DNA from: Candidatus Moraniibacteriota bacterium
GTDB taxonomy: Bacteria > Patescibacteriota > Minisyncoccia > Moranbacterales > UBA2206
Assembly: GCA_030645735.1 (NCBI GenBank)
Contig: JAUSNP010000005.1
Span: 8,151-72,150, forward strand
DNA: 64,000 nucleotides
Reading direction: 5' to 3'
The translations under genes were made by a program, and so were the position numbers. The notes below the pieces were generated by a model that did no database searches, was not told where the DNA came from, and worked only from the letters and a program-made list of their open reading frames with translations. Below, piece after piece: positions 2,117 to 23,039 of the stretch (position 1 is its first letter; each line of letters begins with the position of its first letter).

Positions 2117-2167
2117 ATTTACTTTAGAATAAAAAACGACTCCGTAAATGGGGTCGTTTTTGTTTCC
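2074..2167 (+). repeat. direct repeat copy 1 (fusA 3' end plus terminator)
   Basis: ~92 bp repeated at 3712-3803 with ~88% identity (gaatgtagcYgaagaaatcattactggaaaaaagaaata ... actccgt ... tggggtcgtttttgtt). Confidence 0.8.
2128..2165 (+). terminator. rho-independent terminator after fusA
   Basis: hairpin aaaaaCGACtCCgtaaatGGgGTCGttttt followed by a T-run. Confidence 0.6.
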
Positions 2168-2249
2168 AAATAAGGGTGTTTGCATACAAAGTGTTTGTTT
2201 GATATGATTTCTGTGTAATTTATTAATAAATTAATTTTTTGTAAAAATT

Positions 2250-2807
2250 ATGAAAAAGGGACTTATAACTATAATAGCTGTTGCGGTCATAGTTACCGGG
2301 TATGTTTGGATGACATACAATAAGCTTATTGCGACTAATGAAGCTATTGATAATCAATGGGCGCAAGTTGAGACACAATATCAAAGACGCATAGATTTAA
2401 TTCCGAACTTAGTAGAATCTGTTAAGGGTGTGATGGTGCAGGAACAAAAAATATTTGGAGATTTGGCAGAGGCAAGAAGTCATTATGCGGGAGCAACTGA
2501 CTCAAATCAAAAAGCTGAGGCAGCCACTCAGATAGATGGGGCGTTATCAAGACTTTTGGCAATCATGGAAAACTATCCACAACTAAAATCAGCTGACAAT
2601 GTGCAAACTTTGATGGCACAATTGGAGGGCACAGAAAATCGAATCAGTGTTGAAAGAAAAAAATATAATGACAATGTGAACAGTTTCAATGTGATGATCA
2701 AACAAATTCCTGCCAAATGGATAGCATCTTCTCTTGGGTTTTCAGAGAAGAATTATTTTGAAGCTGTGAAAGGATCAGAAAATACCCCAGTGGTTAATTT
2801 GAAATAG
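2250..2807 (+). CDS. LemA family protein
   Basis: 185 aa; N-terminal TM helix then LemA-like sequence (YNKLIATNEAIDNQWAQVETQYQRRIDLIPNLVE). Confidence 0.85.
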   Translation: MKKGLITIIAVAVIVTGYVWMTYNKLIATNEAIDNQWAQVETQYQRRIDLIPNLVESVKGVMVQEQKIFGDLAEARSHYAGATDSNQKAEAATQIDGALSRLLAIMENYPQLKSADNVQTLMAQLEGTENRISVERKKYNDNVNSFNVMIKQIPAKWIASSLGFSEKNYFEAVKGSENTPVVNLK

Positions 2808-3704
2808 ATGAATCGGTCAGCAATCAAATATCTTCTTGTTTTTATCTGCCTGCTTTTTGCTTTTTCAGCAAAAGCTTATTACGATCCTGGAAAGCCAGAG
2901 GGATTTGTTAATGATTTCGCAAACATCTTAATAATAGAAGAAAAAAATATCTTAGAGAGTAAACTTTCGCAATTTGAAAAAAATTCGACCAACGAAATTT
3001 CGGTAATTACAATCAATGATTTGCAGGGAGATACAATTGAAAATTTTGCCAATCAACTTCATAACGAGTGGGGAATTGGCAAGAAGGGAAAGGACAATGG
3101 TATTTTAGTCTTTGTGGCAATCCAGGATAGAAAAATGAGGATAGAAGTGGGATATGGTCTAGAAGGTTCAGTAACCGATGCTCAAGCCAGTTGGATAATT
3201 TCAGATGTAATGCGCCCAGCTTTTCAACAGGGTAAATATTTCCAGGGCATAGATGGAGCGACTAATAAAATAATCGCAGCTATTGATGGAGAGATTCTTC
3301 CAGCGCAATCAAATCAATCTTCAAAAAATAATCCATCTGCATATAAAGAGGAGAACATAATTTTAATTTTTTGGATGATAGGTTTGTTTTTTGTGTGGTT
3401 TGCCAGTCTATTAGCCAGGAGTAAATCATGGTGGCTAGGTGGAATTGTCGGTGGTTTTATGGGATTTATATTTGGTTCATTTACAGAATCAATATTGATG
3501 ACAAGTATTATGACTGTATCCATGATAATACTTGGCTTAGTATTTGATTATTTTATTTCCAAAGCTTATACAAATGGAAAAAAAGCAGGGCATATTCCGT
3601 GGTGGGCAGGCGGTGGAAATAGCTCATCAGGTGGTTTCGGTGGTGGCTTTGGTGGTTTTGGAGGCGGAAGTTCTGGCGGCGGAGGTGCGAGTGGCGGATG
3701 GTAG
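2808..3704 (+). CDS. TPM (YgcG-like) domain protein with C-terminal TM helices and Gly-rich tail
   Basis: 298 aa; signal peptide; TPM_phosphatase-like region (GILVFVAIQDRKMRIEVGYGLEG); GGFGGGFGG tail; LemA-TPM pairing is a common operon. Confidence 0.8.
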   Translation: MNRSAIKYLLVFICLLFAFSAKAYYDPGKPEGFVNDFANILIIEEKNILESKLSQFEKNSTNEISVITINDLQGDTIENFANQLHNEWGIGKKGKDNGILVFVAIQDRKMRIEVGYGLEGSVTDAQASWIISDVMRPAFQQGKYFQGIDGATNKIIAAIDGEILPAQSNQSSKNNPSAYKEENIILIFWMIGLFFVWFASLLARSKSWWLGGIVGGFMGFIFGSFTESILMTSIMTVSMIILGLVFDYFISKAYTNGKKAGHIPWWAGGGNSSSGGFGGGFGGFGGGSSGGGGASGGW

Positions 3705-3711
3705 GAATTTG

Positions 3712-3803
3712 AAGAATGTAGCCGAAGAAATCATTACTGGAAAAAAGAAATAATCTACTTTGCGATAAAAAACCACTCCGTGATTGGGGTCGTTTTTGTT
3801 TAT
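3712..3803 (+). repeat. direct repeat copy 2 (duplicated fusA 3' end plus terminator)
   Basis: would encode ...[12 protein letters not shown], identical to the EF-G C-terminus, followed by the same terminator hairpin. Confidence 0.8.
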
Positions 3804-3805
3804 TT

Positions 3806-3870
3806 GAAGTTATCCACAGGGCAGGGTATTGACAGTGATAATGATAGTGATAAAATATCATCAAGGAGGT
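3806..3870 (+). promoter_or_regulatory. promoter element with upstream TTATCCACAG box (copy 1)
   Basis: aGTTATCCACAGg, 9 nt, TTGACA, 17 nt, TAAAAT; similar ~60-bp elements at 8420 and 19903; box alone at 22880. Confidence 0.5.
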
Positions 3871-3903
3871 CTGCAGAACTCCCACGTAATAATTTAATAA
3901 CTG

Positions 3904-4185
3904 ATGCTTGAGGCATCGGTCAAAAACAAAATGGAACAACAACAAAACGCACAGAACACTGTGCAGGTGCAGCAGGACAAAGTTTTCTCGCAGATGGCGA
4001 AAGCCGGAGGCAAAACCTATTTCTTCGATGTGAAGAAAGCCAGCAATGGAACAAACTATTTGACCATTGCGGAGTCCTACAAAAAACAAACCGGTGCAAA
4101 AGTGGTCAACCGTCTGCTGATTTTCAAAGATCATTTGGCTTCGTTCATCGGCGCCTTGGAAGAAACGAAACAATATCTGCAATAG
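3904..4185 (+). CDS. DUF3276 / Pur-alpha-like nucleic-acid-binding protein
   Basis: 93 aa; KTYFFDVKKASNGTNYLTIAESYKK matches the bacterial Pur-alpha-like repeat. Confidence 0.55.
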   Translation: MLEASVKNKMEQQQNAQNTVQVQQDKVFSQMAKAGGKTYFFDVKKASNGTNYLTIAESYKKQTGAKVVNRLLIFKDHLASFIGALEETKQYLQ

Positions 4186-4261
4186 CTGAAATTTTCGCGG
4201 ACTGTTTGCGCAATGTAGACAGTCCGCTTATGATTAGATAATAGATAAATTAGTTAAAAAT

Positions 4262-5086
4262 ATGAACAATGAAAATAAAAATAACTTAATGATTTTTGAA
4301 AATAAAGAAGTTCGGCATATTTGGCATAATGGCGAGTTGTTTTTTTCAGTGGTAGATATTGTGGAAGTGCTATCAGAAAGCCCACACCCAAGGCAATATT
4401 GGGAAAAAGTAAAACAGAGAGAATTTATTGAGATTGAAGTGTCCCCAATTTGGGTACAGTTGAAATTAGAAGCATCTGATAGGAAGCTTAGGCTTACAGA
4501 TTGTGTAAATACGGAAAATGCTCTTCGCCTAATTCAATCAATACCGAGCAAGAAGGCTGAGCCTTTTAAGCTGTGGTTAGCAAAAGTCGGGCATGATCGT
4601 ATCAAGGAAATCGAAAATCCTGAATTGGCAGCCAATCGCGCTCGTGAAATTTATCGTACCAAGGGTTATCCAGAGGGCTGGATTGAAAAGCGAATGCGGG
4701 GAATTGAAGTGCGGGAGACATTGACCAGTGAATGGAAAGGTCGAGGGGCAAAAGAGGGAGTAGAATATGCAATTCTAACTAATGAAATTTTGCATGGAAC
4801 TTTTGACATGACTGCTGAAGATTATAAAAAATTTAAAGGATTGAGGCGTGAAAATTTGCGTGATCATATGGATGATCTGGAGCTTATTTTGACAATGTTA
4901 GGCGAAGCGACAACCACCAGAATCCATAAGGATAGGGACTCAAGAGGTTTTGAAAAGTTGAAGGGCGATGCTAAGGAGGGTGGAGCGGTGGCGGGCAGAA
5001 CAAGAGAAGATATAGAAAAAAGAACCGGTAAAAATATTTCTACAAAAAATAATTTTTTAAGCTTGAAGCAAGAGAATATTGTATGA
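4262..5086 (+). CDS. Bro-N / DinD-like phage antirepressor-family protein
   Basis: 274 aa; N-terminal Bro-N-like block (FENKEVRHIWHNGELFFSVVDIVEVL). Confidence 0.55.
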   Translation: MNNENKNNLMIFENKEVRHIWHNGELFFSVVDIVEVLSESPHPRQYWEKVKQREFIEIEVSPIWVQLKLEASDRKLRLTDCVNTENALRLIQSIPSKKAEPFKLWLAKVGHDRIKEIENPELAANRAREIYRTKGYPEGWIEKRMRGIEVRETLTSEWKGRGAKEGVEYAILTNEILHGTFDMTAEDYKKFKGLRRENLRDHMDDLELILTMLGEATTTRIHKDRDSRGFEKLKGDAKEGGAVAGRTREDIEKRTGKNISTKNNFLSLKQENIV

Positions 5087-5182
5087 TGAATTTTTTTGTA
5101 GCCATTGCCAAATTTGGCAATAGACGAAAGGCTTAAATAATGGGTAGAAAATTTTATAAATAAAAATTATACACAAACAAAA

Positions 5183-6805
5183 ATGCTCGAAAAAAATCTA
5201 GAAAAATATTTCAAATTCTCGCAGTTTCGCGCGGGACAGAAAGAAATCATTGAAAGTATTTTGGCTGGCTCGGATGTGGTGGCCTTGATGCCTACGGGTG
5301 GTGGCAAATCTTTGTGCTATCAATTGCCAGCAATTTTGAGTGAGCGCATCACCATTGTCATTTCACCGCTCATTGCGCTCATGAAAGATCAGGTGGACAG
5401 TTTGTTGGCCCGAGGCATTCCCGCCACTTTCATCAACAGTTCTTTGACGCCAGCTGAATTGGAGCAACGCTTACATGATTTGCGTGCCGGCAAAACCAAG
5501 ATTTTATACGTCGCACCTGAGCGTTTTGCCAGCGCTGAGTTTCGCCAGATTTTTGCTGATCTAGATATTTCTTTGTTTGCGGTGGACGAAGCGCATTGTG
5601 TGTCGCAATGGGGACATGATTTTCGACCAGACTATTTGGAAATTGGCAGATATATCAAAACTTTGAAAAAGCGTCCGACGGTGGCCGCTTTCACCGCCAC
5701 CGCCACGCCCGAAGTGGCACAGGACATTATGGTGCGCTTGGATTTGCAAGCGCCGAAAGTTTTCATCCGCGGTTTTGATCGACCCAACATCAAATTCTTT
5801 TCGCAATGTGATTTGAAACCCACGCAACGCTTGGAAGAAGTTTTGCGCATCGTGAAATCCTTGAAAGGGGCGGGCTCAGGCATTGTCTATGCCATCTCGC
5901 GCAAAGACACGGAAGCCATTGCTAAATATTTGAAAAAAGAAGGGATAACAGCTCGGGCCTATCATGCGGGCATGAACGCTGTTGCGCGTGAGAAAATTCA
6001 AAATGATTTCATGGAAAATCGTTTCAAGGTGATTGTGGCCACCGTGGCTTTTGGCATGGGTGTGGACAAAGCCGACATTCGCTTTGTGATTCATTGCGGC
6101 ATGCCCGGCAGTTTAGAAGGCTACTATCAAGAAGCGGGTCGTGCCGGACGCGATGGTGAGCCAGCTTTTTGCGTGTTGTTGCATGGCAAACGCGACGTGA
6201 CCGCGCACAAATTCTTCATTCGCATCGACAAGCAAAATATGCTCGCGCAAGGCAAGAGTTTACAAGAAGTGAATCAGGTACTCGACATCAAATATGCGCG
6301 CTTAGACGGCATCCTAGACTACGCCACAGCCAAGCGTTGTCGGCGTCGCATCATTTTGGAATATTTCAATGATCCGGATTTGCATAAACAGGAAGCTAAT
6401 TGCAAAGGCTGTGATGTGTGTTTGAATTGGAAAAACACTGAACTCAAAAAAACTGCCCACAGTCCGCGCATAGCCAGAAACAAAGATGAGTTGAGTGACA
6501 CCATCATGGAAACCGTGAATTTGTATCAACAAGACTATCTACCCGAGCAAATTGCCAAGATGCGCAGTTTGGGCGTCAGCACTATTTTCAACCATTTGGT
6601 GTTGTGGTATCTGGCGGGTGGGGAATTGGTCATTGAAAAATTTGTGAGTGCAGAGGAAGAGCAACAAATCTTGCAAGCTTTGCCGCAAGCGGGCAGCGCG
6701 CATTTTTTGAGCGCCATCAAGGCTCAATTGCCAGAAAACATCAGCTATGAGCAGATCCGTTTGATCATCGCCAAACGGCAAAAAATGAAAGCTGATAGAC
6801 ATTAG
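5183..6805 (+). CDS. recQ: ATP-dependent DNA helicase RecQ
   Basis: 540 aa; helicase motifs ([28 protein letters not shown]) and RecQ-C zinc-binding cysteines. Confidence 0.9.
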
Positions 6806-6861: not shown

Positions 6862-7362
6862 ATGAGTACACAAGAAAATTTGATGGCTGCCTTTGCGGGT
6901 GAGTCGCAAGCCAATCGCAAATATTTAGCTTTTGCCAAACAAGCCAAACAAGAAGGCAAAGACAATTTGGCCAGACTTTTCCGTGCCACAGCCGACGGAG
7001 AAACTGTGCACGCACTCAATCATTTGCATGTGGCAGGAGGAGTCAAAACTTCAGTTGAAAATTTGCAAGCTGCCATTTCGGGCGAGACTTATGAATTTGA
7101 AACAATGTATCCAGAATTTTTGCAAACAGCGGAAGCGGAAGGAAATGGTCCAGCTAAAATCACTTTTGGTGGGGCGATGAAGGTGGAAAGAGAACATCAA
7201 GGATTCTACAGTGCGGCTTTGGAAAAAGTGGCAACTGGCACTGATATCGATGAAACCAAATATTTTGTCTGCCAAGTTTGCGGACACTTGCATGAAATTG
7301 AAGCCCCAGAAAAATGTCCGGTCTGTGGCGCACCGAAAGAGAAGTTCAAAGAAATTGCCTAA
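6862..7362 (+). CDS. rbr: rubrerythrin
   Basis: 166 aa; ferritin-like di-iron motifs plus C-terminal rubredoxin CxxC...CxxC (CQVCGH...CPVCG). Confidence 0.9.
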   Translation: MSTQENLMAAFAGESQANRKYLAFAKQAKQEGKDNLARLFRATADGETVHALNHLHVAGGVKTSVENLQAAISGETYEFETMYPEFLQTAEAEGNGPAKITFGGAMKVEREHQGFYSAALEKVATGTDIDETKYFVCQVCGHLHEIEAPEKCPVCGAPKEKFKEIA

Positions 7363-7368
7363 AAAAAT

Positions 7369-7836
7369 ATGGCGAAAGAAATAGATGTATATCAAATTTC
7401 CTTGAAAGCAATCTTGAGAAATCGAGATGGCAAGGTTTTGATTTTGAAAGTGCCATCAACTTGGGGTGCATTTGTTGGGTTTTATGATTTGCCTGGTGGG
7501 AGAGTTGATGAGGATGAATTCACAGTCCCTTTTTCGGAAGTTCTCATGCGAGAAATTCAGGAAGAGGTTGGCAATATTGAAGTGAAGCTAGGCGATGCTC
7601 CAGTTGCAGCTGGCAGACATAGTCTTCCTGCAGAGCAAATGAAAACAGAAAAAGACATTCACATTCTTTATGTTTTCTATGAGGCCGAAATGGTGAGTGG
7701 AGAAATTGAAGTGGGAGATGAGCATGCCGGTTTTGAGTGGGTTGATCTAACTGAGATAGTTTTGGAAAAATATTTCTTCTCTGGTATTTTGGAGGGTATG
7801 CAAATGTATTTGGAAGCGCAGAATAATAAGAAATAA
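7369..7836 (+). CDS. NUDIX hydrolase
   Basis: 155 aa; Nudix box GGRVDEDEF...REIQEEVG. Confidence 0.8.
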   Translation: MAKEIDVYQISLKAILRNRDGKVLILKVPSTWGAFVGFYDLPGGRVDEDEFTVPFSEVLMREIQEEVGNIEVKLGDAPVAAGRHSLPAEQMKTEKDIHILYVFYEAEMVSGEIEVGDEHAGFEWVDLTEIVLEKYFFSGILEGMQMYLEAQNNKK

Positions 7837-7842
7837 CAAAAA

Positions 7843-8124
7843 ATGAACAATCAAACTTTGGGACTGCTAGCTTTTTTCGCAATCGTGAATGTGTTGGCTT
7901 TTGTGATCATGCTGTGGGACAAGATGCAATCACGGAAAAAAGACGCTGAACGAATTTCTGAGGGCATGTTGTTTTTTATGGCCACCATTTTTGGTAGTGT
8001 CGGCGTGTTGGCCGGCATGTTTGCTTTTCGACACAAAACCCAGAAATGGTATTTTCTGATGGGCATTCCAATGCTTATCGCAGAAAATTGCGCACTGCTC
8101 TATTTGATATACGAAAAAATCTAA
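7843..8124 (+). CDS. DUF1294 membrane protein
   Basis: 93 aa; MLWDKMQSRKKDAERISE...FRHKTQKWYF pattern typical of DUF1294. Confidence 0.55.
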   Translation: MNNQTLGLLAFFAIVNVLAFVIMLWDKMQSRKKDAERISEGMLFFMATIFGSVGVLAGMFAFRHKTQKWYFLMGIPMLIAENCALLYLIYEKI

Positions 8125-8136
8125 AGACAATTTTTT

Positions 8137-8418
8137 ATGTATTTTCTCTACATTTTGCAATGCGCTGACAAAAGCTTCTATACTGGCATCACCACGGATG
8201 TGGCGCGGCGCATCGAAGAGCACAACACTTCCGAACTAGGTGCGCGCTACACGCGTGGGCGCCGGCCGTGCAAAGTTGTTTTCATCAAAGAGTTTGCCAA
8301 TCGTTCCACTGCTTCCATCGAAGAAGCGCATGTGAAAGCCCTGTCACGTGCCAAGAAAACAGAACTCATCAAAAAGCATCATCGTTTCACCAAAGCGCAT
8401 TTGCATGACATGTTTTAG
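8137..8418 (+). CDS. GIY-YIG nuclease-family protein (YhbQ/UPF0213-like)
   Basis: 93 aa; FYLYILQCADKSFYTGITTDVARRIEEHN matches the small GIY-YIG family. Confidence 0.75.
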   Translation: MYFLYILQCADKSFYTGITTDVARRIEEHNTSELGARYTRGRRPCKVVFIKEFANRSTASIEEAHVKALSRAKKTELIKKHHRFTKAHLHDMF

Positions 8419-8419
8419 G

Positions 8420-8480
8420 GTGGTCAAGTTATCCACAGAGCAAAACATGACAATAATTTATTATAGTGTTATAATATCAC
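8420..8480 (+). promoter_or_regulatory. promoter element with TTATCCACAG box (copy 2)
   Basis: aGTTATCCACAGa ... TGACAA ... TATAAT upstream of the DinD-like gene. Confidence 0.5.
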
Positions 8481-8503
8481 TATAATCAAATAAGTCATAA
8501 AAT

Positions 8504-9355
8504 ATGGAAAAACAAATAATAACAAAGCTGCACAAGGATTTCGAAAATTGCGCTCATGAAGAAAACGGCGTTGAATTTTGGTATGCTAGGGAATTGCAAA
8601 ATTTACTTGGATATGAGAAGTGGGGCAACTTCGAGGGGGTTATTGAAAAGGCAAAAATAGCTTGTGAAAAGGCCAAGCAAAAAGTTGCTGACCATTTTGC
8701 CGGCGTCGGCAAAATGGTTGATTTGGGCTCGGGCAGTAAGCGAGAAGTTTCGGATATTATGCTCACTCGCTACGCTTGTTATTTGATTGCGCAAAATGGT
8801 GATCCGCGTAAAGATGAAATTGCTTTTGCGATGACATACTTTGCAGTGCAAACCAGAAAGCAAGAAATCGTCGAAGAAAGATTGGCACAATGGGATCGAT
8901 TGCAAGCACGAGAAAAATTGTCACTTTCAGAAAAAGAGCTTTCTGGAATTTTGTTTGAACGTGGCGTGGACAATCAAGGCTTTGCACGCATTCGTAGCAA
9001 GGGAGACGCGGCCTTGTTTGGTGGCTACACAACTCAGGACATGAAAAATCGTTTAGGCGTGCCAGACAAAAGACCGTTAGCAGATTTTTTGCCATCCGTG
9101 ACAATCAAAGCGAAAGACTTGGCCAATGAAATCACCAATCACAATGTCAAAAAAGATCAGGCGCTTCAAGGTGAAATAGTCATCACACATGAACATGTGA
9201 AAAACAATCGAGATGTGCGCAGTCTGTTGGCAAAGAACGACATCTATCCAGAAAATTTGCCACCCGCAGAAGATACTAAAAAATTAGAACGAAAATTGAA
9301 ATCAGAAAACAAAAAATTGCCTAAAGTGGTGAAGAAATTGAAAAGTAAAAAATAA
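8504..9355 (+). CDS. dinD: DNA-damage-inducible protein D-like (Bro-N family)
   Basis: 283 aa; FWYARELQNLLGYEKW ... RYACYLIAQNGDP closely matches E. coli DinD. Confidence 0.75.
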   Translation: MEKQIITKLHKDFENCAHEENGVEFWYARELQNLLGYEKWGNFEGVIEKAKIACEKAKQKVADHFAGVGKMVDLGSGSKREVSDIMLTRYACYLIAQNGDPRKDEIAFAMTYFAVQTRKQEIVEERLAQWDRLQAREKLSLSEKELSGILFERGVDNQGFARIRSKGDAALFGGYTTQDMKNRLGVPDKRPLADFLPSVTIKAKDLANEITNHNVKKDQALQGEIVITHEHVKNNRDVRSLLAKNDIYPENLPPAEDTKKLERKLKSENKKLPKVVKKLKSKK

Positions 9356-9365
9356 GTTTAAAAAT

Positions 9366-10100
9366 ATGGAAAAAGAATTTAGGATCAAGGCGAAGGATGG
9401 CAAACAGATATATTGCAAGTTGCGCGGGTCATTGGAAAAACCGGTCATTGTTTTTGTGCATGGTTTCACTGGCCACATGGACGAACATCTTTTCTACAAC
9501 GCCGCGCGTTTTTTTGAGAAAAAAGGTTTCGCCAGCTTGCGTTTCAATCTCTATGGTGACCAAGATGACGCGCGCAAATTGCATGAGTGTGATTTGCAAA
9601 CCCACGCAGCTGATTTGGATCGTGTGGTGAGCTATCTCAAAAAGAAAAAAGCCCAAGACATTTTCGCCGTCGGACACAGCTATGGCGGACCGACAATCTT
9701 CTTGTCAGACACCAAAAACTACAGAGCGCTGGTTTTGTGGGACGCCAGTTTTCATTTCAAAGCGCTTTTCAAAAACAAAGAATATTCCAAAGAATTGAAA
9801 GGCTTTTGCAAAGAGTGGGCTTTCAAATTTTTCATCGGCCAAAAGTTTGTGACTGAAGCTGAAAAATTGGAAAAAACATTTTGGCAAACAGTTTCTCAAA
9901 ACAAGGCGCCAACCAAAGTTGTATTGACCGAAAATGGCAATGCGCGCTCACCACTCAAGAAAGATTTTTTCACTGCCTTGAACGAGCCGAAAGAAATGCT
10001 AGAAATGAAAAAAACCGGCCACACTTTCAGCGAAGACACCGCCGCCGAAAAACTTTTCCAAGAGACTTTGAAATGGCTAAGGAAGTTTGGCAAAAAATAA
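9366..10100 (+). CDS. alpha/beta hydrolase
   Basis: 244 aa; VFVHGFTGHMDE and nucleophile elbow GHSYGG. Confidence 0.7.
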   Translation: MEKEFRIKAKDGKQIYCKLRGSLEKPVIVFVHGFTGHMDEHLFYNAARFFEKKGFASLRFNLYGDQDDARKLHECDLQTHAADLDRVVSYLKKKKAQDIFAVGHSYGGPTIFLSDTKNYRALVLWDASFHFKALFKNKEYSKELKGFCKEWAFKFFIGQKFVTEAEKLEKTFWQTVSQNKAPTKVVLTENGNARSPLKKDFFTALNEPKEMLEMKKTGHTFSEDTAAEKLFQETLKWLRKFGKK

Positions 10101-10306
10101 CTCATTGCAAAATATTTTTTCAATGCATCGTTTATTCCAATACTAACTCATGGCATTTGCTTTTCGAGCATTCTTTGCTACAATAAAAAACCTGCTTTAG
10201 GCGGGTGATTTGTACTTTTATATATGCGATCGAGGGCTCTTAGTTTGAGCAAAAGCTGTTGCCAATGGTGGCGAATAAACAGGTGAAAACGAGGAGGAGG
10301 AAAGCG

Positions 10307-11638: not shown

Positions 11639-11662
11639 GTTTGCAAGCAGTATTTTTTCTAC

Positions 11663-11705
11663 CAAAGCCGGAGGGGTTCAATTGAACTTCCTCCGGCTTT
11701 TTTCT
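11663..11705 (+). terminator. rho-independent terminator
   Basis: GCCGGAGGggttcaattgaacttCCTCCGGC followed by a T-run. Confidence 0.7.
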
Positions 11706-11774
11706 TTTTGCCCAAAAGGTGGTTTTGGCGTAGAATTAGGCCAGTTAATTGTTTAATAATTAAGCATAAAAACT

Positions 11775-12089
11775 ATGTCAAAACAACTCATCAAACAATC
11801 TTTCCTGCTAGCTTTGGGCGAAGGGATTTATATTTCCTTGGTGGCACTGCTCATGTTTGGCGTTCAGAAATGGTTCGGTTCCAAACCCGATCCGGCCGTC
11901 ATTGCACCAATTGCCTTCCTCTTGCTTCTCGTCATTTCCGCGGCAATTTCAGGCGCCCTGATCTTGGGCAAACCCGCCATGCTCTATCTCGACGGACAAA
12001 AGAAAGACGCGCTCAAACTTTTTGGTCTGACTGTTGGTTGGTTAATTGTTCTGTTAGTCATTGCATTCACAATCGTGGCGATGCAATAG
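11775..12089 (+). CDS. hypothetical small membrane protein (3 TM helices)
   Basis: 104 aa, hydrophobic; no recognisable family. Confidence 0.4.
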   Translation: MSKQLIKQSFLLALGEGIYISLVALLMFGVQKWFGSKPDPAVIAPIAFLLLLVISAAISGALILGKPAMLYLDGQKKDALKLFGLTVGWLIVLLVIAFTIVAMQ

Positions 12090-16212: not shown

Positions 16213-16240
16213 TTAAGTGTTGTGAAAATAAGAAATATTT

Positions 16241-16621
16241 ATGAAACAAGTTAGGTGGATAAAAAATACTCAAAATAATGAATGGTTCGATTTTTTGCGA
16301 TTAAATCTCGAATCTCCTTATTTTAATGGTAAAGTAGGTATTTACGCTATTTGGTATGCCACGCCCTCATCTGCAAAAGTTATAAAAGTGGGAAGTGGAA
16401 ACATCGCAGAGCGCCTAAAGGACCATAGAGCTAATCAAGAAATAACCAAATATTCATCCCTGGGCAGCCTGAAAGTATCTTGGGTTGTTGCAGATTCTAA
16501 TCCGTTATCTCCAGATGAAATCCAAGGAGCAGAAATCTACCTTGCCAATAAATACCGTCCGCTAGTTGGCGATAGATTTCCAAATGTACAAGAAATTCCT
16601 ATTAGTCCAATAAAGAAATAA
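16241..16621 (+). CDS. hypothetical protein with GIY-YIG / T5orf172-like signature
   Basis: 126 aa; GIYAIWY-(10)-VIKVGSG...ERLKDH...E spacing resembles a GIY-YIG core; directly downstream of res in an AT-rich island. Confidence 0.35.
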   Translation: MKQVRWIKNTQNNEWFDFLRLNLESPYFNGKVGIYAIWYATPSSAKVIKVGSGNIAERLKDHRANQEITKYSSLGSLKVSWVVADSNPLSPDEIQGAEIYLANKYRPLVGDRFPNVQEIPISPIKK

Positions 16622-16626
16622 ACCCT

Positions 16627-17025
16627 ATGGATATTCTATTGAAAACCTTAATTGAGTTAGCCCCAGCGTTAATTGTTGGTATTGTTATTTGGGCACTTGG
16701 AGAAAAAGCAATAAAGGATCGAATGAAATCAGATGCTATAAGAGACTTAATGGCCTATCGTGGAGATTATGCGTCATCTGATTTTAGGCGATCTTTGAAC
16801 AAAATTTCAGTGACCTTTCATAATGATCCAGAAATTCGCTCAAAAGTTAGAAATCTTTATGAGGTTATTAATAATCCGACATTGCCGTCTAAAAGCACGG
16901 AAAGAACGATTGTCGGATTAATTTATAGATTGTGTCAAAAAAATGGATTTAAAGGCTTAACGGAATATGATATAGATCAGGCATTTCCAGAGAATAAACA
17001 AAATCCTCAAGAGTCTATTGAATAA
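16627..17025 (+). CDS. hypothetical protein with N-terminal TM helix
   Basis: 132 aa; no family recognised; 6 nt after the previous gene, likely co-transcribed. Confidence 0.35.
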   Translation: MDILLKTLIELAPALIVGIVIWALGEKAIKDRMKSDAIRDLMAYRGDYASSDFRRSLNKISVTFHNDPEIRSKVRNLYEVINNPTLPSKSTERTIVGLIYRLCQKNGFKGLTEYDIDQAFPENKQNPQESIE

Positions 17026-17400
17026 AATATTCAAAAATAAAGAGCACTAGTAATTGGTCGATACTAGAGGAATTAGAATTTAAATAAACACTAAAAATAA
17101 TAAAATGACTAAGATAAAATGTGCGGCAAGGCGTGTGGATAAAAAGCCAGGCGTAAAAACTGTTAAAGTTGAATCGCACAAGAGAAGTGTGCCAAAAAAG
17201 ATTGGTAAAAAATGTAGTTGCTAGTTAGGTCGCCTTGAAAAATGTGACTAAGTAGGTAGAGTTTGATTGGCATGAGGAATGATTTAAAATCAAGAATTTG
17301 GATTGACTTACTTTGCTGAAAAATAACGCCCAAAAAGCGCAACCTTTCACAAAGACAACTGCATATGCGGTTGTTTTTGTTTTAGTGGTATAATTACAAC

Positions 17401-17529
17401 ATGAAAAAGAAAGTATTTATAATCCATGGTTGGGAAGGAAAACCTGATTCAAATTGGTTTCCGTGGATGAAAACTGAATTGGAAAAAGAAAATGTGCAAG
17501 TGCATGTTTCGAGCATGCTAAATTCATAA
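17401..17529 (+). pseudogene. truncated N-terminal fragment of an alpha/beta serine hydrolase (YdeN/RBBP9-like)
   Basis: 42-codon ORF MKKKVFIIHGWEGKPDSNWFPWMKTELEKENVQV then stop; typical start of ~190-aa esterases. Confidence 0.4.
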
Positions 17530-17558
17530 ATTAATTCAAATAATTACTTATATGAAAT

Positions 17559-18170
17559 ATGTCAGAAGAATTTGTTAGAATCAATATTGCTTTTATGCCG
17601 CCGGTTGAAATTGCGGAAAAAGTTGCGCAGATTAGTTATGAGATAGGCGCGAAAGAAGAATCCTATTTTGTCATTGATAGAAAAAATTTTCATCCACATA
17701 TTACAATTTATGGATTTGAATTTCCGGCTCGCAATTTGGAAAATGTTTTGGCTGAGATTGAAATATTGTCCAAAAAATTATCTAGTGCGAAATTTGTTTT
17801 TAAGAAAGTTACTACCGAAGAAGGATATATCGGTATAGAATGTGACAATACTGAGGAAATAAAACATATTCATGAAACAACCATTAAGGCACTCAACCCT
17901 TGGCGTGAGGGGCATATTCGAGATAAAGATAAGAATATGAAATCTTCCGAAAAGAACTTGAATGTTCAAGAATATGGACATCCTCGCGTTATGGACTCAT
18001 ATTGTCCTCACATGACTATAATTAGATTGAAAGATGATGAAGTCGCGGAAAAAATAGCAACAGAAATCCAATGGACTGATAATGCATTTGTCTTGGATAG
18101 AATAGGTGCATTTAGAATGGGGCCAAACGGAACATGCGTGGAGTTAATAAGAGAATTTAAGCTTGGATAA
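17559..18170 (+). CDS. 2H phosphoesterase superfamily protein (LigT / 2'-5' RNA ligase-like)
   Basis: 203 aa; two H-x-T/S-x motifs (HPHITIY and CPHMTII). Confidence 0.7.
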   Translation: MSEEFVRINIAFMPPVEIAEKVAQISYEIGAKEESYFVIDRKNFHPHITIYGFEFPARNLENVLAEIEILSKKLSSAKFVFKKVTTEEGYIGIECDNTEEIKHIHETTIKALNPWREGHIRDKDKNMKSSEKNLNVQEYGHPRVMDSYCPHMTIIRLKDDEVAEKIATEIQWTDNAFVLDRIGAFRMGPNGTCVELIREFKLG

Positions 18171-18202
18171 TCAAAGGTGATGAATTAATTCAATAATTAA
18201 AT

Positions 18203-18403
18203 TTGTTCATGGAAGATAGGGAGGCGATTGAAATTTTGATGCGGATGGGGGACAAGTATGCTCTTTCTGACGAAGAAAAAGAGGCGGTTTCGGCGGCCAT
18301 CGGAATACTCAGCTGGTCAGCGCTCGGCCAGACTCGCATAAAAAACATCGCCAAGGCGCAAAAGGCGAAAAAAGAGTTCAAGGAGAATAAATTTTTAAAA
18401 TAA
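18203..18403 (+). CDS. hypothetical small protein
   Basis: 66 aa, charged, no family. Confidence 0.3.
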   Translation: MFMEDREAIEILMRMGDKYALSDEEKEAVSAAIGILSWSALGQTRIKNIAKAQKAKKEFKENKFLK

Positions 18404-18444
18404 CAATCTAGAATCGAAATAACTTCAAAGCCCGAGCCCTTAAA

Positions 18445-18490
18445 AACAAAAAAAATAACATTCTGACATTCTCAAGAATGTCAGCATGTC
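18445..18490. promoter_or_regulatory. palindromic operator (copy 1)
   Basis: aACATTCTgACATTCTCAAGAATGTCAgcatgt; 9-bp inverted arms TGACATTCT/AGAATGTCA overlap the first in-frame ATG of the ArsR ORF. Confidence 0.6.
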
Positions 18491-18513
18491 GGCGTGGTAT
18501 AATAAAAACAAAA

Positions 18514-18822
18514 ATGTTAGCCAAAAGAAAAAAAGTTGTGCAGAAGGAAAAGACGCCCAAGCAGATGGAGCGACACTTGAAAGGTGTCGCCAATCATCGG
18601 CGGATCGCGATTCTTTTTCTGATTGCGAAGCGCAGAGGAATCACGGTAGATGGCATTGCGGAAAATTTGGATTGCAATGTAAAAACGATCTCGTCCCATC
18701 TTTGGCGTTTGGCTCAATCCGGGCTCGTAGTGAAGGTCTATCGAGGGCGGACAGTCGCACACGAACTTTCTCCCTACGGAAAGATTCTCCATAAATTCCT
18801 AACCACATTCTCCCAACAATAG
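18514..18822 (+). CDS. ArsR/SmtB-family winged-helix transcriptional regulator
   Basis: wHTH (RRIAILFLIAKRRGITVDGIAENLDCNVKTISSHLWRLAQSGLV); start chosen downstream of the operator palindrome (ORF track 18478). Confidence 0.65.
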   Translation: MLAKRKKVVQKEKTPKQMERHLKGVANHRRIAILFLIAKRRGITVDGIAENLDCNVKTISSHLWRLAQSGLVVKVYRGRTVAHELSPYGKILHKFLTTFSQQ

Positions 18823-18828
18823 AACATT

Positions 18829-18866
18829 CTCACATTCTCAAGAATGTCAGCATGTTATTGGGTAGG
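18829..18866. promoter_or_regulatory. palindromic operator (copy 2)
   Basis: gaACATTCTcACATTCTCAAGAATGTCAgcatgt; ~37-nt direct repeat of copy 1, located between ArsR and the HAD gene. Confidence 0.6.
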
Positions 18867-18885: not shown

Positions 18886-19491
18886 ATGAACAAAGAACAA
18901 TTCGAAAATTATCTTCAAGAGAAAAACAAGAATCATATTATTTTTGATTTTGACGCAACATTATGCACGTTGTTAGTTGATTGGAATCCATGGCGTAAGG
19001 AAATGGATGATATTTTTTCTGAGTTAGGATTGAATGTAGATAGGAGTTCTAATTTCAACTATTCTGAAATGCTAAATCGTTGCGTTGAAAAAGGTGGAGA
19101 TGCGATGAGGGATCGGATAATGGAAATGAATTATAATGTCGAAAAGAATTTTTCTTCCGGTTATGATTTGTCGCCTTTGGCAATGCCACTCTTGGAATTG
19201 TCCAAAACAAATGCTGATTTGTATCTTTGGACATCCAATGACAAAAGAACAATCATGCCAATTTTGGAAGAACTAAATTGGGTGAAATTCTTCAAAAAAA
19301 TTGTTACGCGCAATGATGTTAGATATATCAAGCCGAGCGCAGATGGCTTTGCTTTGATTTATGATGAGAATGTTCCAAAATCCCAATATTTGCTCATCGG
19401 CGACAGTCGCTCCGACAGTGGCGCGGCACAAGCGGCGGGCATAGATTTTTTGAATATTGATGAGTTTGAAGAAGATAAATTTATAAAATAA
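18886..19491 (+). CDS. HAD-superfamily hydrolase
   Basis: 201 aa; motif I FDFDATL, C-terminal GDSRSD. Confidence 0.75.
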   Translation: MNKEQFENYLQEKNKNHIIFDFDATLCTLLVDWNPWRKEMDDIFSELGLNVDRSSNFNYSEMLNRCVEKGGDAMRDRIMEMNYNVEKNFSSGYDLSPLAMPLLELSKTNADLYLWTSNDKRTIMPILEELNWVKFFKKIVTRNDVRYIKPSADGFALIYDENVPKSQYLLIGDSRSDSGAAQAAGIDFLNIDEFEEDKFIK

Positions 19492-19496
19492 AAAAT

Positions 19497-19898
19497 ATGA
19501 ACAAGGCCTATGATTGGTATCAACAATTGGCAAAACCAACTTGGTCACCACCGAGCTGGGTGTTTGGTCCGGTGTGGACATTTTTGTATGTTTTGATCGC
19601 GATTTCTTTTGGTAGAGTTTTTTGGCTGTTGCTCAAGAAACAAATTCCATTCTTGGTGGCTTTGCCTTTCATTTTGAATTTGATTTTCAATTTTTCTTTC
19701 ACTCCGATTCAATTCGGACTCAAAAACAATTATCTGGCGGCTATTGATATTCTCTTGGTGCTGGTCACACTCATCTGGAGCATGGTTGCAATTTTTCCCT
19801 ATGCGCGCTGGATCACCTACATTCAAATCCCATATCTCGTGTGGGTCTCTTTTGCCACAATTTTGCAGCTGACAATAACATATTTGAATTGGAAATAA
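19497..19898 (+). CDS. tspO: TspO/MBR family tryptophan-rich sensory protein (copy 1, short form)
   Basis: 133 aa; WYQQLAKPTWSPPSWVFGPVWTFLY is the TspO signature. Confidence 0.8.
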   Translation: MNKAYDWYQQLAKPTWSPPSWVFGPVWTFLYVLIAISFGRVFWLLLKKQIPFLVALPFILNLIFNFSFTPIQFGLKNNYLAAIDILLVLVTLIWSMVAIFPYARWITYIQIPYLVWVSFATILQLTITYLNWK

Positions 19899-19902
19899 GC
19901 TG

Positions 19903-19965
19903 TGGTTTCCGAGTTATCCACAGGATGAAGAATAGACAGAAGTTTGTTATGATGATATAATATCA
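19903..19965 (+). promoter_or_regulatory. promoter element with TTATCCACAG box (copy 3)
   Basis: gAGTTATCCACAGg ... TAGACA ... TATAAT. Confidence 0.5.
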
Positions 19966-19989
19966 CCATAACAAATTAAAATAAAAAAT

Positions 19990-21006
19990 ATGGTGAAAAA
20001 ACAAAAAGAAGCTCCAAAACAAGGGGAGATTATAATCTACAAGGACAAGCGCGGGGAAATCGAGCTTGAGGTTAATGTTGGCGACGAGACTATATGGCTT
20101 ACACAAAAACAAATTGCAGATCTATTTGATAAGGGAGTTCCTGCAATAAATGAGCATATAAACAATATATACAAAGAGAAAGAGTTGAGTAGAAGGGCAA
20201 CTATTCGGAAATTCCGAATAGTTCGTTTAGAAGGCAAAAGAATGGTTGAACGTGAAGTGGACTCTTATAGCTTAGATATGGTTCTATCTGTTGGTTATAG
20301 AGTTAGTTCAAAACGTGCCACTCAATTCCGTATTTGGGCAACCAATGTTTTGAAAGAACATCTTTTGAAAGGTTACACGGTGAATCAAAAAAGATTGTTG
20401 CAAGAACGAGAAAATTTTGAAAAATTGCAAAAAACCATTGCGTTTTTGCGCGAGAAGGCGCACGCTAAAACTTTGCAAGGGCAGGAGAGTGAGATTTTAG
20501 ATCTTTTGGGTGACTATGCCAGAACACTGACCTTTTTGGAGCAATATGACAAAAGCAAATTGAAAGTGGCGCGCGCGGGGAAGGCGAAGTTTGTTTTGAA
20601 ATATGAGGTTTGCCAGAATATTGTAACGGAGATCAAGCGTGAGTTGATGGCCAAGAAAGAAGCGAGCGATATTTTTGGCACCCAGCGTAGCGGAGCTTTT
20701 GAATCTGTTATCAAAAATTTATACCAAACTTTTGGTGGCAAAGAATTGTATGCCAATCTAGAAACGAAAGCGGCTCATCTTTTGTATCTAGTCATCAAAG
20801 ATCATCCATTTTCTGATGGCAACAAGCGCATCGGCGCATTCTTGTTTGTATACTTCTTAGACAAAAACAGATATCTTTATGACACCAAGGGTGAAAAGAA
20901 AATCAATGACAACGCTTTGACGGCTTTGGCTTTGTTGGTGGCAGAAAGCAATCCAAAAGAAAAAGATGTTATAATTGCCTTGATAACTAATTTGTTGAAT
21001 AAATAG
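19990..21006 (+). CDS. RhuM-family protein with C-terminal Doc/Fic domain
   Basis: 338 aa; N-terminal Bro-N/ORF6N-like block (GEIELEVNVGDETIWLTQKQIADLF); C-terminal HPFSDGNKRIGAF fits the Doc-type HxFx(D/N)GNKR motif. Confidence 0.7.
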   Translation: MVKKQKEAPKQGEIIIYKDKRGEIELEVNVGDETIWLTQKQIADLFDKGVPAINEHINNIYKEKELSRRATIRKFRIVRLEGKRMVEREVDSYSLDMVLSVGYRVSSKRATQFRIWATNVLKEHLLKGYTVNQKRLLQERENFEKLQKTIAFLREKAHAKTLQGQESEILDLLGDYARTLTFLEQYDKSKLKVARAGKAKFVLKYEVCQNIVTEIKRELMAKKEASDIFGTQRSGAFESVIKNLYQTFGGKELYANLETKAAHLLYLVIKDHPFSDGNKRIGAFLFVYFLDKNRYLYDTKGEKKINDNALTALALLVAESNPKEKDVIIALITNLLNK

Positions 21007-21012
21007 AAAGAT

Positions 21013-21705
21013 ATGATTCTAGGATTTTCATCAGGATGTCTGCACAAAACGCATGATCGAATGGCCAAGGGAACTTTTGATGTATTTCGAAAACTTGGGT
21101 GCAATGCAATTGAAATCATGTGCTATGACGTCGAAAGTGTTTCGAGATTGGCTGAAATTTCGCTAGATGATTTGCAAGGTTTTGAGCACATCTCTCTGCA
21201 TGCACCATTGTTGCAAGAAGTTTCTGCCGAAGATTTGGAGGGAGTTTTGCGTCAAATTGAAGTGGCGCAGAAAAGAATTGGCTTTGCCTATGTGGTCGTG
21301 CATCCAGACAAAAGCATTGATTGGAAAACTTTGTCAAAATTTGCCATTCCGTTTGCAGTTGAGAATATGGATAATCGAAAGGATTTTTATCGCAATGTTG
21401 CAGATCTGCAAGAATTGTTTGCACAGTTTGATGCGAAAATGGTGTTGGATTTGAATCATTGTTTTGTGAATGATTCGACTATGCAATTGGCAAAAGAGTT
21501 TGTGAAAGCTTTCCCCGACAGAATTGCTGGAATTCACTTGAGCGGATTTGAAACCTTTCATGATCCACTGCACAAAACGCAACAACAAGAAATTCTCGAT
21601 GCGGTTTTCAACAAAAACATCCCAATCATAATCGAAAGTGGTTGCGAGACAGAGCTGGACGTGGAAAAAGAATATTTGTATGTAAAAAATAAATTAAGCA
21701 ATTAA
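21013..21705 (+). CDS. sugar phosphate isomerase/epimerase (xylose isomerase-like TIM barrel)
   Basis: 230 aa; ISLHAP, VVVHPD, AVENM, LDLNHC motifs. Confidence 0.65.
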   Translation: MILGFSSGCLHKTHDRMAKGTFDVFRKLGCNAIEIMCYDVESVSRLAEISLDDLQGFEHISLHAPLLQEVSAEDLEGVLRQIEVAQKRIGFAYVVVHPDKSIDWKTLSKFAIPFAVENMDNRKDFYRNVADLQELFAQFDAKMVLDLNHCFVNDSTMQLAKEFVKAFPDRIAGIHLSGFETFHDPLHKTQQQEILDAVFNKNIPIIIESGCETELDVEKEYLYVKNKLSN

Positions 21706-21716
21706 AATAAAAAAAT

Positions 21717-22118
21717 ATGAACAAGGCATATGATTGGTACCAACAACTTGCAAAACCGACTTGGTCGCCACCGAGCTGGGTGTTTGGTCCAGTGTGGACA
21801 TTTTTGTATGTTTTGATCGCGATTTCTTTTGGTAGAGTTTTTTGGCTGTTGCTCAAGAAACAAATTCCATTCTTGGTGGCTTTGCCTTTCATTTTGAACT
21901 TGATTTTCAATTTTTCTTTCACGCCAATCCAGTTTGGTCTCAAGAATAATTATCTGGCGGCCATCGATATTCTCTTGGTTCTGGTCACGCTCATCTGGAG
22001 CATGGTTGGAATCTTTCCCTACGCACGCTGGATCACCTACATTCAAATTCCATATCTTGTGTGGGTCTCTTTCGCCACAATTTTGCAACTGACAATAACA
22101 TATTTGAATTGGAAATAA
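21717..22118 (+). CDS. tspO: TspO/MBR family protein (copy 2)
   Basis: 133 aa; one substitution versus copy 1 (A-to-G at MV[A/G]IFPY); DNA ~95% identical. Confidence 0.8.
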   Translation: MNKAYDWYQQLAKPTWSPPSWVFGPVWTFLYVLIAISFGRVFWLLLKKQIPFLVALPFILNLIFNFSFTPIQFGLKNNYLAAIDILLVLVTLIWSMVGIFPYARWITYIQIPYLVWVSFATILQLTITYLNWK

Positions 22119-22147
22119 TAACTAATTTGTTGAATAAATAAAATTTT

Positions 22148-22516
22148 ATGATCACACCTGGACTAAAAAAATTCATCGAAGCAAATGCCATGGCTTTGGC
22201 GACTGTGGGCAAGAATGGCAAACCACATAGTATTGCAGTGGCGTATGTGAAAGTGGTTGAGGATAATTTGGTCATAACTAATGCGCATATCAAAGAATCA
22301 ATCAAAAACATTGCGCTCAATGCTAATGTTTCTATCGCCATCTGGAACAAAGACTGGGAAAAAGCTTGCGTGGGCTATGAAATCACCGGCAAAGCTAAGA
22401 ATTATACTAGCGGTAAATGGTTTGATTTTGTTTGTAATATGCCGGATAATGAAGGTGAAAAAGTGCACAGCGCCATTGTGGTCAAAATTTCGAAAATTAA
22501 AAAATTGGAGTCATAA
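22148..22516 (+). CDS. pyridoxamine 5'-phosphate oxidase-family FMN-binding protein
   Basis: 122 aa; split-barrel pattern (ALATVGKNGKPHSIAVAYVKVVEDNLVIT). Confidence 0.6.
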   Translation: MITPGLKKFIEANAMALATVGKNGKPHSIAVAYVKVVEDNLVITNAHIKESIKNIALNANVSIAIWNKDWEKACVGYEITGKAKNYTSGKWFDFVCNMPDNEGEKVHSAIVVKISKIKKLES

Positions 22517-22540
22517 AAATAAATATTTAACACAAAAATT

Positions 22541-22816
22541 ATGTTAGACAAAAAACTCAAAGAAGCCATGGAATTGTTGGGCGGAAAAGCGGTAGTGAAG
22601 GACGGCGAACAGGTTTATGTGGTTATGACTCTGCGGGAATTCAAAAAGGTGAAGCAAGAGGGCATTGAGGGCTTGACAAAGCAGGAATTGGTTGATAAGA
22701 TTAACAACGATATAGCCAGCTGGAAGTTTGTCCAAGAGGAGAAACAGGCTGAGCTGATTGAGCTGGAAGAAATCAGCGAAATCGACAATTCTGAGGTGAC
22801 CTACGAGAAGGCCTAA
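22541..22816 (+). CDS. hypothetical protein (possible Phd/YefM-like fold)
   Basis: 91 aa; KAVVKDGEQVYVVMTLREFKKV resembles the antitoxin N-terminal fold; no partner toxin nearby. Confidence 0.3.
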   Translation: MLDKKLKEAMELLGGKAVVKDGEQVYVVMTLREFKKVKQEGIEGLTKQELVDKINNDIASWKFVQEEKQAELIELEEISEIDNSEVTYEKA

Positions 22817-22871
22817 ATTATGGAAATAGTTTGTGAGATCCCTCGATAAACTCGGGATGATTCCGCAAAAC

Positions 22872-22935
22872 GGAATCACTTATCCACAGGTCAAAAAGCG
22901 GGGAAGCTTGCCAAGAATTGAAAGGTGGTATAAAA
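22872..22935 (+). promoter_or_regulatory. tuf promoter with TTATCCACAG box (copy 4)
   Basis: cacTTATCCACAGg ... TTGCCA ... TATAAA, followed by three short hairpins in the leader (22960-23030). Confidence 0.45.
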
Positions 22936-23039
22936 TAAGTAAACTAAGTAAAATAATAATTTAATTCGTATTTATTTGCGAATCCGGTTTATATTCCGGA
23001 TTTAATTCGTGAAATAAAACGAATATATAAACTAATAAT

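Follow-up and report, generated by a model that had tools for sequence, protein, structure and literature searches.

The interval between fusA and tuf in a 64,000-nucleotide stretch of Candidatus Moraniibacteriota DNA (contig JAUSNP010000005.1; the whole stretch is called the window below) is very probably a strain-variable hotspot for accessory and defence genes that encodes no recombinase. In the str operon fusA and tuf are normally neighbours and are co-transcribed. In the window fusA (26-2116, +) and tuf (23040-24233, +), both verified by Pfam and the latter followed by the genes for S10 and L3, are separated by 20.9 kb (2117-23039) with about 27 genes, all on the + strand. All long open reading frames (ORFs) from 1 to 27 kb lie on this strand, and the GC content is about 40%. 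A preliminary description of this DNA had noted a separation of about 21 kb between genes that usually adjoin, which agrees with the measured gap and the confirmed flanks.

The normal state of the junction was established with an EF-G scan in which one genome per species was taken; the L-numbers used here are labels of the compared loci or contigs. The scan places the host in Candidatus Moraniibacteriota (Patescibacteria, or Candidate Phyla Radiation, CPR), with 85% identity to L001 and 73% to L002. Outside this group tuf does follow fusA directly, the median gap being 105 bp in loci with EF-G identity below 72%. Relatives at the level of Moraniibacteriota have a median gap of 963 bp (range 213-5961; 21 complete gaps), and 14 more such loci, outside the 21 complete gaps, run for at least 2 kb without reaching tuf. 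More distant Moraniibacteriota have gaps of 0.2-2 kb, typically with the order fusA, a gene for a 91-amino-acid (aa) protein, tuf. In L089, L094, L095, L098, L099 and L118 (78-84% identity) the order is either fusA-91-aa gene-tuf or fusA-tuf with about 230 bp between them. The two genes bound the interval in L084, L165, L171, L087-L089, L094 and L097. Because the outgroups carry fusA and tuf either directly adjacent or with the 91-aa gene between them, the expanded interval is a derived state within the sub-clade of the window.

No integrase, transposase, or tyrosine or serine recombinase domain was detected with Pfam in the scanned ORFs of this island, and no recombinase domain was found in the cargo at the same position in the relative L083. 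Megablast of the region against 50,697 phage records and against plasmid records gave no match. The idea of integration by an element-encoded recombinase thus did not hold up for the island, and the footprints described below fit host recombination.

Variation among close relatives

Nine distinct genomes whose EF-G shares at least 91% identity with that of the window, obtained from metagenome contigs and context look-ups, have intervals of 2.6 to 20.9 kb in which the genes are mostly different. In L084, L165, L171 and L172 DUF3276 directly follows fusA. After it come a 179-aa gene, a TIM-barrel gene, the 91-aa gene and tuf in L165 (94%, interval 2.6 kb), RecQ, DUF1294, Peptidase_S51, SpoU, the 91-aa gene and tuf in L171 (93%, 5.2 kb), and five small genes, RecQ, an MGMT-like gene, the 91-aa gene and tuf in L084 (91%, 6.0 kb). 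In L172 (93%, >10 kb) DUF3276 is followed by genes for a 1056-aa lipase-like protein, MFS, PEMT and Cdd1. The interval of L083 (93%, at least 5.7 kb) begins with four unrelated genes, after which come DUF3276 and DinD, and that of L168 (93%, >10 kb) contains DUF2238, a membrane protein, Bro-N, Fic, a MazE-like protein, two methylases and DpnI. The closest EF-G sequences, those of L081/L170 (98%), are followed over more than 10 kb by genes for a 704-aa protein, AbiEii, an IS200-like Y1 transposase, small membrane proteins, two NUDIX proteins and SecDF, and none of the island genes of the window occurs within 10 kb. A 206-aa gene before AbiEii in these two loci has no Pfam family and presumably encodes its antitoxin. 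Defence genes at the locus in relatives include AbiEii, GmrSD, DpnI, Fic and a MazE-like gene.

A further comparison is with L161, which comes from the same sample as L170 and has an EF-Tu about 100% identical to that of the window. Both share purCE (80%), a membrane protein (98%), a 64-aa ORF, ArsR, TspO and RhuM-Doc, and L161 also has the 91-aa gene and the last third of PNPOx. Window positions 19497-21006 (TspO1 to RhuM-Doc) are 86.6% identical to L161 at the nucleotide level. The L161 slot that matches window positions 12193-18205 is occupied by a D12 methylase (Dam), GmrSD_N/C and an N6_N4 methylase (4.7 kb), and L161 is without the HAD gene and the TIM-TspO2 block. In this arrangement the Type III restriction-modification (R-M) block of the window and the L161 set are alternative defence blocks between shared flanks.

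A backbone of DUF3276, RecQ, DUF1294 and the 91-aa gene is shared with L084, L165, L171 and L172, and this backbone is older, so that not all of the 21 kb can be considered recent cargo. Blocks of one to six genes entered at several points and not at a single integration site. Bro-N (4262-5086) is missing at this position in L171, and L086 has a homologue upstream of its str operon. DinD stands directly after DUF3276 in L083 and is found as relic fragments in L165 and L168. These relics and the truncated PNPOx of L161 show that deletions also occur, and a stub at 17401-17529 of the window may be a further deletion relic.

Composition in the island is uneven, as the preliminary description had proposed. 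GC content at third codon positions (GC3) is 0.421 ± 0.106 for 26 island genes and 0.365 ± 0.053 for the 52 genes in the rest of the window, the standard deviations differing significantly (Levene p = 1.2e-6). The GC-rich character of purCE was confirmed (GC 0.503, z = +3.8); RecQ, DUF3276, GIY-YIG and the 91-aa gene are also among the high-GC3 genes, and low values are found for LemA-TPM (0.29-0.32) and the block at 12.2-18.2 kb. The R-M segment had been called markedly AT-rich. This holds for Mod (GC 0.326, z = -2.5) but not for Res (GC 0.380, z = -0.6), which is within background, and the block is better described as moderately AT-rich. GC3 alone is no marker of recent arrival, because the deviant DUF3276, RecQ and 91-aa genes are conserved in relatives. 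The close relatives have neither the same gene content nor intervals of the same length, and the composition is not uniform, in agreement with the repeated use of the hotspot suggested in the preliminary description.

Several other features of the relatives may be mentioned. The region upstream of rpsL-rpsG-fusA in L170 (1-7147) differs from that in L164 (1-7416) and L165 (1-12091), with Dus, DnaB, RecR and L21 in place of Peptidase_M50 and M10. The L170 fusA contig continues into secDF, and fusA and tuf may be unlinked in this genome. Within the interval of L086, positions 7290-8930 hold a gene for a reverse transcriptase of 336 aa (RVT_1) and, after it, some 600 nt in which all ORFs are spurious; this could be a retron or an element of the diversity-generating retroelement type with a non-coding RNA or template. 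At L081 11307-12064 (equivalent to L170 11370-12050) the palindrome TCCTAAAGGGAACCTTTAGGA occurs upstream of, inside and just downstream of the Y1 transposase gene, an element that resembles the REP/RAYT type (repetitive extragenic palindromes with their associated transposase) or the IS200/IS605 type. In L087 a stretch of about 850 nt (11615-12458), located after fusA and before the 91-aa gene, has no credible ORF, and a search of 11600-12470 gave no Rfam match beyond chance level.

Gene content of the interval

Gene identities were assigned with Pfam, NCBIfam and PADLOC profile searches of the window ORFs. All gene calls of the preliminary description stand, and its Pur-alpha-like gene is DUF3276. 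The flanks and the intervening features are as follows; promoters are predicted.

26-2116, +: fusA (EF-G), left conserved flank, Pfam; 98% aa identity to L081/L170 and 85% to L001
2166-3711, +: LemA-TPM block with its own promoter, Pfam (LemA 2250-2807, TPM 2808-3704)
3808-4185, +: promoter module and DUF3276, backbone (GTTATCCACAG at 3809, -35/-10 at 3829-3856, DUF3276 3904-4185)
4262-5086, +: Bro-N protein (PADLOC PDC-S13), strain-variable insert between DUF3276 and RecQ
5183-6805, +: RecQ-family helicase, backbone; identity 77% to L084, 87% to L171 and 73% to L162
6862-7836, +: rubrerythrin and NUDIX, Pfam; insert relative to L171
7843-8418, +: DUF1294 (backbone, 68% identity in L171) and a small GIY-YIG protein
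8428-9355, +: second GTTATCCACAG promoter module and DinD/Bro-N (box 8428, promoter 8447-8475, DinD 8504-9355)
9366-12192, +: alpha/beta hydrolase, PurC-PurE fusion (10265-11638), terminator, 104-aa membrane protein (11775-12089)
12193-18205, +: defence block with Mod 12216-13910, Res 13900-16212, a gene of unknown function 16241-16621, DUF6680 16627-17025, a 42-aa stub 17401-17529 and LigT 17559-18170
18209-18855, +: conserved 64-aa ORF, ArsR-type helix-turn-helix regulator (18478-18822) and two GACATTCTCAAGAATGTC copies
18886-19491, +: HAD hydrolase, missing between ArsR and TspO in L161
19497-21006, +: TspO copy 1, third GTTATCCACAG module (19913; promoter 19933-19961) and RhuM-Fic/Doc (PADLOC PDC-S23)
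21013-22152, +: TIM-barrel protein (PDC-M70B), TspO copy 2 and orphan RhuM-Doc end; block missing in L161
22148-22816, +: PNPOx-like protein (cut to its last third in L161) and the 91-aa gene before tuf
22879-24233, +: tuf promoter region with CTTATCCACAG (22879) and tuf (23040-24233), right conserved flank

DinD was assigned by an NCBIfam equivalog model (349 bits, cut-off 242), and the Type III Mod and Res proteins by PADLOC (MTase_III 1.8e-81, REase_III 2.7e-20). PADLOC candidate families in the interval are PDC-S23, PDC-S13 (twice) and PDC-M70B. A TTG-initiated ORF at 11708-12163 was rejected as spurious, the actual gene being that of the 104-aa membrane protein at 11775-12089. The 42-aa ORF at 17401-17529 (MKKKVFIIHGWEGKPDSNWFPWMK...) looks by eye like the N-terminal stub of an alpha/beta serine hydrolase and is, on this visual resemblance, probably a truncated hydrolase pseudogene inside the R-M block.

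The 91-aa protein (22541-22816) has no Pfam or NCBIfam match, and its gene has the highest GC3 of the region (0.61). This gene directly precedes tuf across the clade (L001, L084, L087-L089, L094, L097, L165, L171), with protein identities of 59-98% within the clade and 36-42% in more distant CPR bacteria. The palindrome GACATTCTCAAGAATGTC occurs in two 41-nt copies that are 90% identical (18449-18489 and 18815-18855) and bracket the ArsR-type gene. These copies are probably the operator of this regulator, placed before its own gene and before the HAD-TspO genes. An Rfam search of the whole window and separately of 11600-12250 gave only two tRNAs at 57 kb, the rest being at chance level. These are tRNA-Ala(TGC) at 57067-57145 and the adjoining tRNA-Ile(GAT) at 57254-57328. 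Such a pair is usually located in the 16S-23S spacer; in the window it is free-standing, and Rfam detects no rRNA.

Footprints of block arrival

One trace of an arriving block is a duplication of the fusA end around LemA-TPM:

2075-2165, +: repeat copy 1, the last 41 nt of fusA (TAG stop) and the terminator hairpin
3712-3801, +: repeat copy 2, an orphan 41-nt fusA 3' fragment (TAA stop) and terminator, directly after TPM

Between the copies, identity is 98% over the coding portion and 80% over the terminator. Copy 2 runs collinearly into the promoter and gene of DUF3276, as the true fusA end does in L084 (window 3712-4136 corresponds to L084 4645-5080). It has the TAA stop and CTTTGCGA as in L081, and the functional copy ends with TAG. 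Because the orphan fusA end after TPM is collinear with the fusA-DUF3276 junction of L084, LemA-TPM is an insertion between fusA and DUF3276 that brought along or regenerated a fusA 3' end.

A similar duplication is present in L083: the stretch from stop codon through hairpin and terminator at 1796-1907 recurs at 6159-6271, and the terminator has a third copy at 5111-5146. It surrounds the four unrelated genes of this genome, a cargo wholly unlike LemA-TPM. In a control with 11 relatives, extra copies of the fusA end were found only in L083, which is also the only one of the 11 with a block between fusA and DUF3276; the four relatives in which DUF3276 directly follows fusA have none.

Footprints of this kind are not restricted to fusA. 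The last 24 nt of RhuM-Doc recur after TspO2 (22118-22152), with the join at an ATAA microhomology (22115-22118), and in L168 a 40-residue 3' fragment of the 104-aa membrane gene is found after the Bro-N block. The two TspO copies of the window share 93% nucleotide identity and differ in one residue. A recent tandem duplication was considered and rejected, since the copies are as far from each other as each is from the L161 orthologue, save for a 110-nt identical tract. This fits xenologous or old copies with some gene conversion.

Mode of arrival

The recombination route, and the DNA uptake that would precede it, are what we infer from the observed variability, backbone, footprints and absence of a recombinase. 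Incoming DNA of related lineages would pair with a conserved stretch, which could be the fusA 3' end with its terminator or the 3' end of a resident island gene. Host recombination would then join this DNA additively, using one homologous anchor and an illegitimate or microhomology join at the other side; Campbell-type integration of a circularised fragment would be an equivalent alternative. By each route the 3' end of the anchor gene would come to stand, as an orphan copy, behind the newly added block. The footprint turns up at more than one anchor gene and its left edge varies, as would be expected of additive single-anchor recombination, and such an anchor-based route is the explanation that we favour, with reserve. 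The exchange of R-M sets between shared flanks fits an ordinary double crossover, by which whole defence blocks could be replaced, and deletions would also remove genes from the interval. Entry of the DNA would most likely be by natural uptake. Natural competence with homologous integration has been shown in Saccharibacteria, a cultivated CPR group (PMC10633639), and in L165 and L168 ComEC is encoded a few kb upstream of the str operon.

Several observations weigh against the additive, anchor-based route. LemA-TPM was not seen after fusA in any sampled relative and a donor was not found. The best TPM homologue outside the strain is only 58% identical; it is encoded on the 5.6-kb contig L169, near the contig start behind a short ORF fragment. 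Despite this distance, the orphan fusA piece of 41 nt matches the resident copy at 98% identity. When fusA was compared with 10 relatives in sliding windows, no clear mosaic break emerged, identity to L081 being 85-98% along the whole gene. Competence genes were seen in relatives and not within the window. The islands of L081 and L086 contain an IS200-like Y1 transposase and a reverse transcriptase, respectively, which makes a recombinase acting in trans conceivable. Finally, classical homology-facilitated illegitimate recombination usually deletes rather than duplicates recipient DNA.

A recombinase from elsewhere, or from a helper element, could also have acted at an att-like site in the fusA 3' end and terminator, in which case the repeats of about 90 nt would be attL and attR. 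Integrative elements are classically recognised by direct repeats that take in the 3' end of the gene they target, and here such repeats are found at fusA in two genomes with different cargo, ending alike in both at the end of the terminator T-run. However, no integrase, transposase or serine recombinase domain accompanies them in the island or the L083 cargo, and the left edge varies from 41 nt before the stop codon in the window to about the stop codon in L083. The repeats at fusA (about 90-110 nt in the window and L083) show graded identity, 98% and then 80%, and the similarity covers the whole homologous terminator instead of a short identical core. The same footprint at the unrelated anchors RhuM-Doc and the 104-aa membrane gene also speaks against it, and we consider site-specific integration rather unlikely. 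Differential loss from a large ancestral region, with all present differences being deletions, would account for the truncated PNPOx in L161, the DinD relics in L165 and L168 and the hydrolase-like stub at 17401-17529, and deletions clearly do occur. It is nevertheless distinctly improbable: the outgroups have fusA-(91-aa gene)-tuf with gaps of 0.2-2 kb, the largely non-overlapping gene sets of the islands would require an implausibly large ancestor, the duplicated anchor ends around blocks indicate insertion, and neither the heterogeneous composition nor the presence of two different R-M sets in one slot is explained.

That all 21 kb represent a single decayed mobile element, such as a prophage, an integrative and conjugative element or an integrative plasmid, is suggested by phage-associated domains (Bro-N twice and RhuM-Doc in the window, AntA in L085). 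Genes for an integrase, for structural proteins, for replication or for conjugation were not found with Pfam, neither phage nor plasmid records gave a match, and parts of the region are shared in differing combinations with different relatives, which makes this explanation very improbable. The source is a metagenome-assembled genome, and in a GWA2_39_41-like relative fusA and tuf are on separate contigs, so that an assembly or binning artefact joining unrelated contigs must also be considered. The independent Logan assembly L164, from another run and the same strain, has the identical order from fusA through PurCE at 100% aa identity, and misassembly is therefore ruled out over this stretch; its contig stops in purCE and thus checks the first 9.4 kb after fusA. 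The order from PurCE to tuf is reproduced in part by L161, and L084 and L171 show fusA-DUF3276...RecQ...91-aa gene-tuf on single contigs. An artefact is scarcely credible.

A recurrent promoter motif

The motif GTTATCCACAG contains the canonical Escherichia coli DnaA-box 9-mer TTATCCACA. This 9-mer has four + strand occurrences in the window, all of them inside the fusA-tuf interval: at 3809 (DUF3276), 8428 (DinD), 19913 (RhuM-Doc) and, as CTTATCCACAG, at 22879 (tuf). Each box lies 9-18 nt upstream of a predicted -35/-10 pair. Matches with at most one mismatch number seven against 0.67 expected. In close relatives the exact 9-mer occurs on the + strand 23 times in 109 kb of fusA-tuf intervals, 2 times in 152 kb upstream of fusA and not at all in 161 kb downstream of tuf, which corresponds to an at least 16-fold higher density in the intervals than in the flanks. 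All loci with EF-Tu identity of at least 95% have the motif 145-205 nt before the tuf start, as do 8 of the 16 loci of the 85-95% class. Further sites are at 1989, 8122 and 9841 in L161, 4752 and 10473 in L084, and 12149 and 14554 in L165.

The promoter modules resemble each other at the level of the motif and not of the segment. Left-behind copies of the tuf promoter were rejected as their origin, as the spacing from box to -35 and the -35 hexamer differ between the cassette and tuf types. The motif may bind DnaA, act as a promoter element specific to this lineage or serve as a patch for recombination. One could go further and regard the str-operon junction as a recombinase-free cassette platform of small expression units, each with a fusA-type terminator and a DnaA-box promoter module. 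We consider this quite doubtful; if true, the shared signals would provide homology patches for capture, and cassette expression would be coupled to DnaA or the growth state.

Significance

CPR bacteria have tiny genomes with few recognisable mobile elements, and little is known of the ways in which they acquire genes for defence and accessory functions. The fusA-tuf locus is a concrete and repeatedly used entry point in one of the most conserved gene neighbourhoods of bacteria, and its footprints point to additive DNA capture driven by host recombination. In a literature search no paper was found that describes the fusA-tuf junction as a hotspot. The kind of region is already known; this example is of interest for its site in a CPR str operon, its clean footprints of insertion and its promoter motif with a DnaA box. 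A practical caution follows as well, as fusA, tuf and rpsL serve as phylogenetic markers. A hotspot between such markers could explain some signals of gene transfer as well as metagenome contig breaks at this position. A study of Patescibacteria lists tuf and rpsL among the frequently 'transferred' genes (PMC12455944), a signal that may be connected with the hotspot.

Comparison with known systems

Three types of mobile region were compared with the island and do not describe it. A recombinase-borne island is not supported by the Pfam results given above for the island and the L083 cargo. A prophage would be expected to carry structural or packaging genes or an integrase, of which Pfam found none, and the megablast search of phage records was negative as well. 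An integron is not indicated either: neither an integrase nor a recurrent inverted repeat at the block ends was found (no dedicated attC model was run), and the blocks carry their own predicted promoters. Integrative islands at the 3' ends of genes resemble the present case in that the fusA 3' end and terminator are repeated around a block, but the present case lacks an integrase and a fixed crossover core, its cargo is only 1.5 kb, and other anchors show the same footprint.

Homology-facilitated illegitimate recombination is known from natural transformation of Acinetobacter, Pseudomonas stutzeri and Streptococcus pneumoniae. The footprints described here are consistent with it and would share with it the use of one anchor, a short join such as ATAA (22115-22118), and the sufficiency of host functions and DNA uptake. 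A difference is that classical products lose recipient DNA, whereas here the anchor end is kept as a duplicate. The term itself occurs in PMC8116780 and PMC6382021.

Defence islands with variable R-M slots are similar in having a complete Type III R-M system and block swaps between conserved flanks. The present island differs in that defence genes are mixed with purCE, rubrerythrin, NUDIX, HAD, TspO and PNPOx genes, and that all genes are co-oriented with the ribosomal operons. The closest likeness is to hotspots of horizontal gene transfer (HGT) flanked by core genes, with which the region shares a fixed core-gene interval, fast turnover among close relatives and the absence of an integrase. 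Hotspots between core genes without mobile elements, which diversify by recombination in the flanks, especially in transformable species, were described by Oliveira, Touchon, Cury and Rocha (2017, PMC5635113), and the proposed homologous recombination of flanks and natural transformation would be common to both. In the present case the flanks are normally adjacent str-operon genes, the small genome is that of a CPR bacterium, and the footprints point to single-anchor, additive events with duplication of the anchor, not only to double crossovers. With a Type III methyltransferase and restriction enzyme, PDC-S23, PDC-S13 twice and PDC-M70B in the interval, the region qualifies as an HGT hotspot flanked by core genes and at the same time as a defence island.

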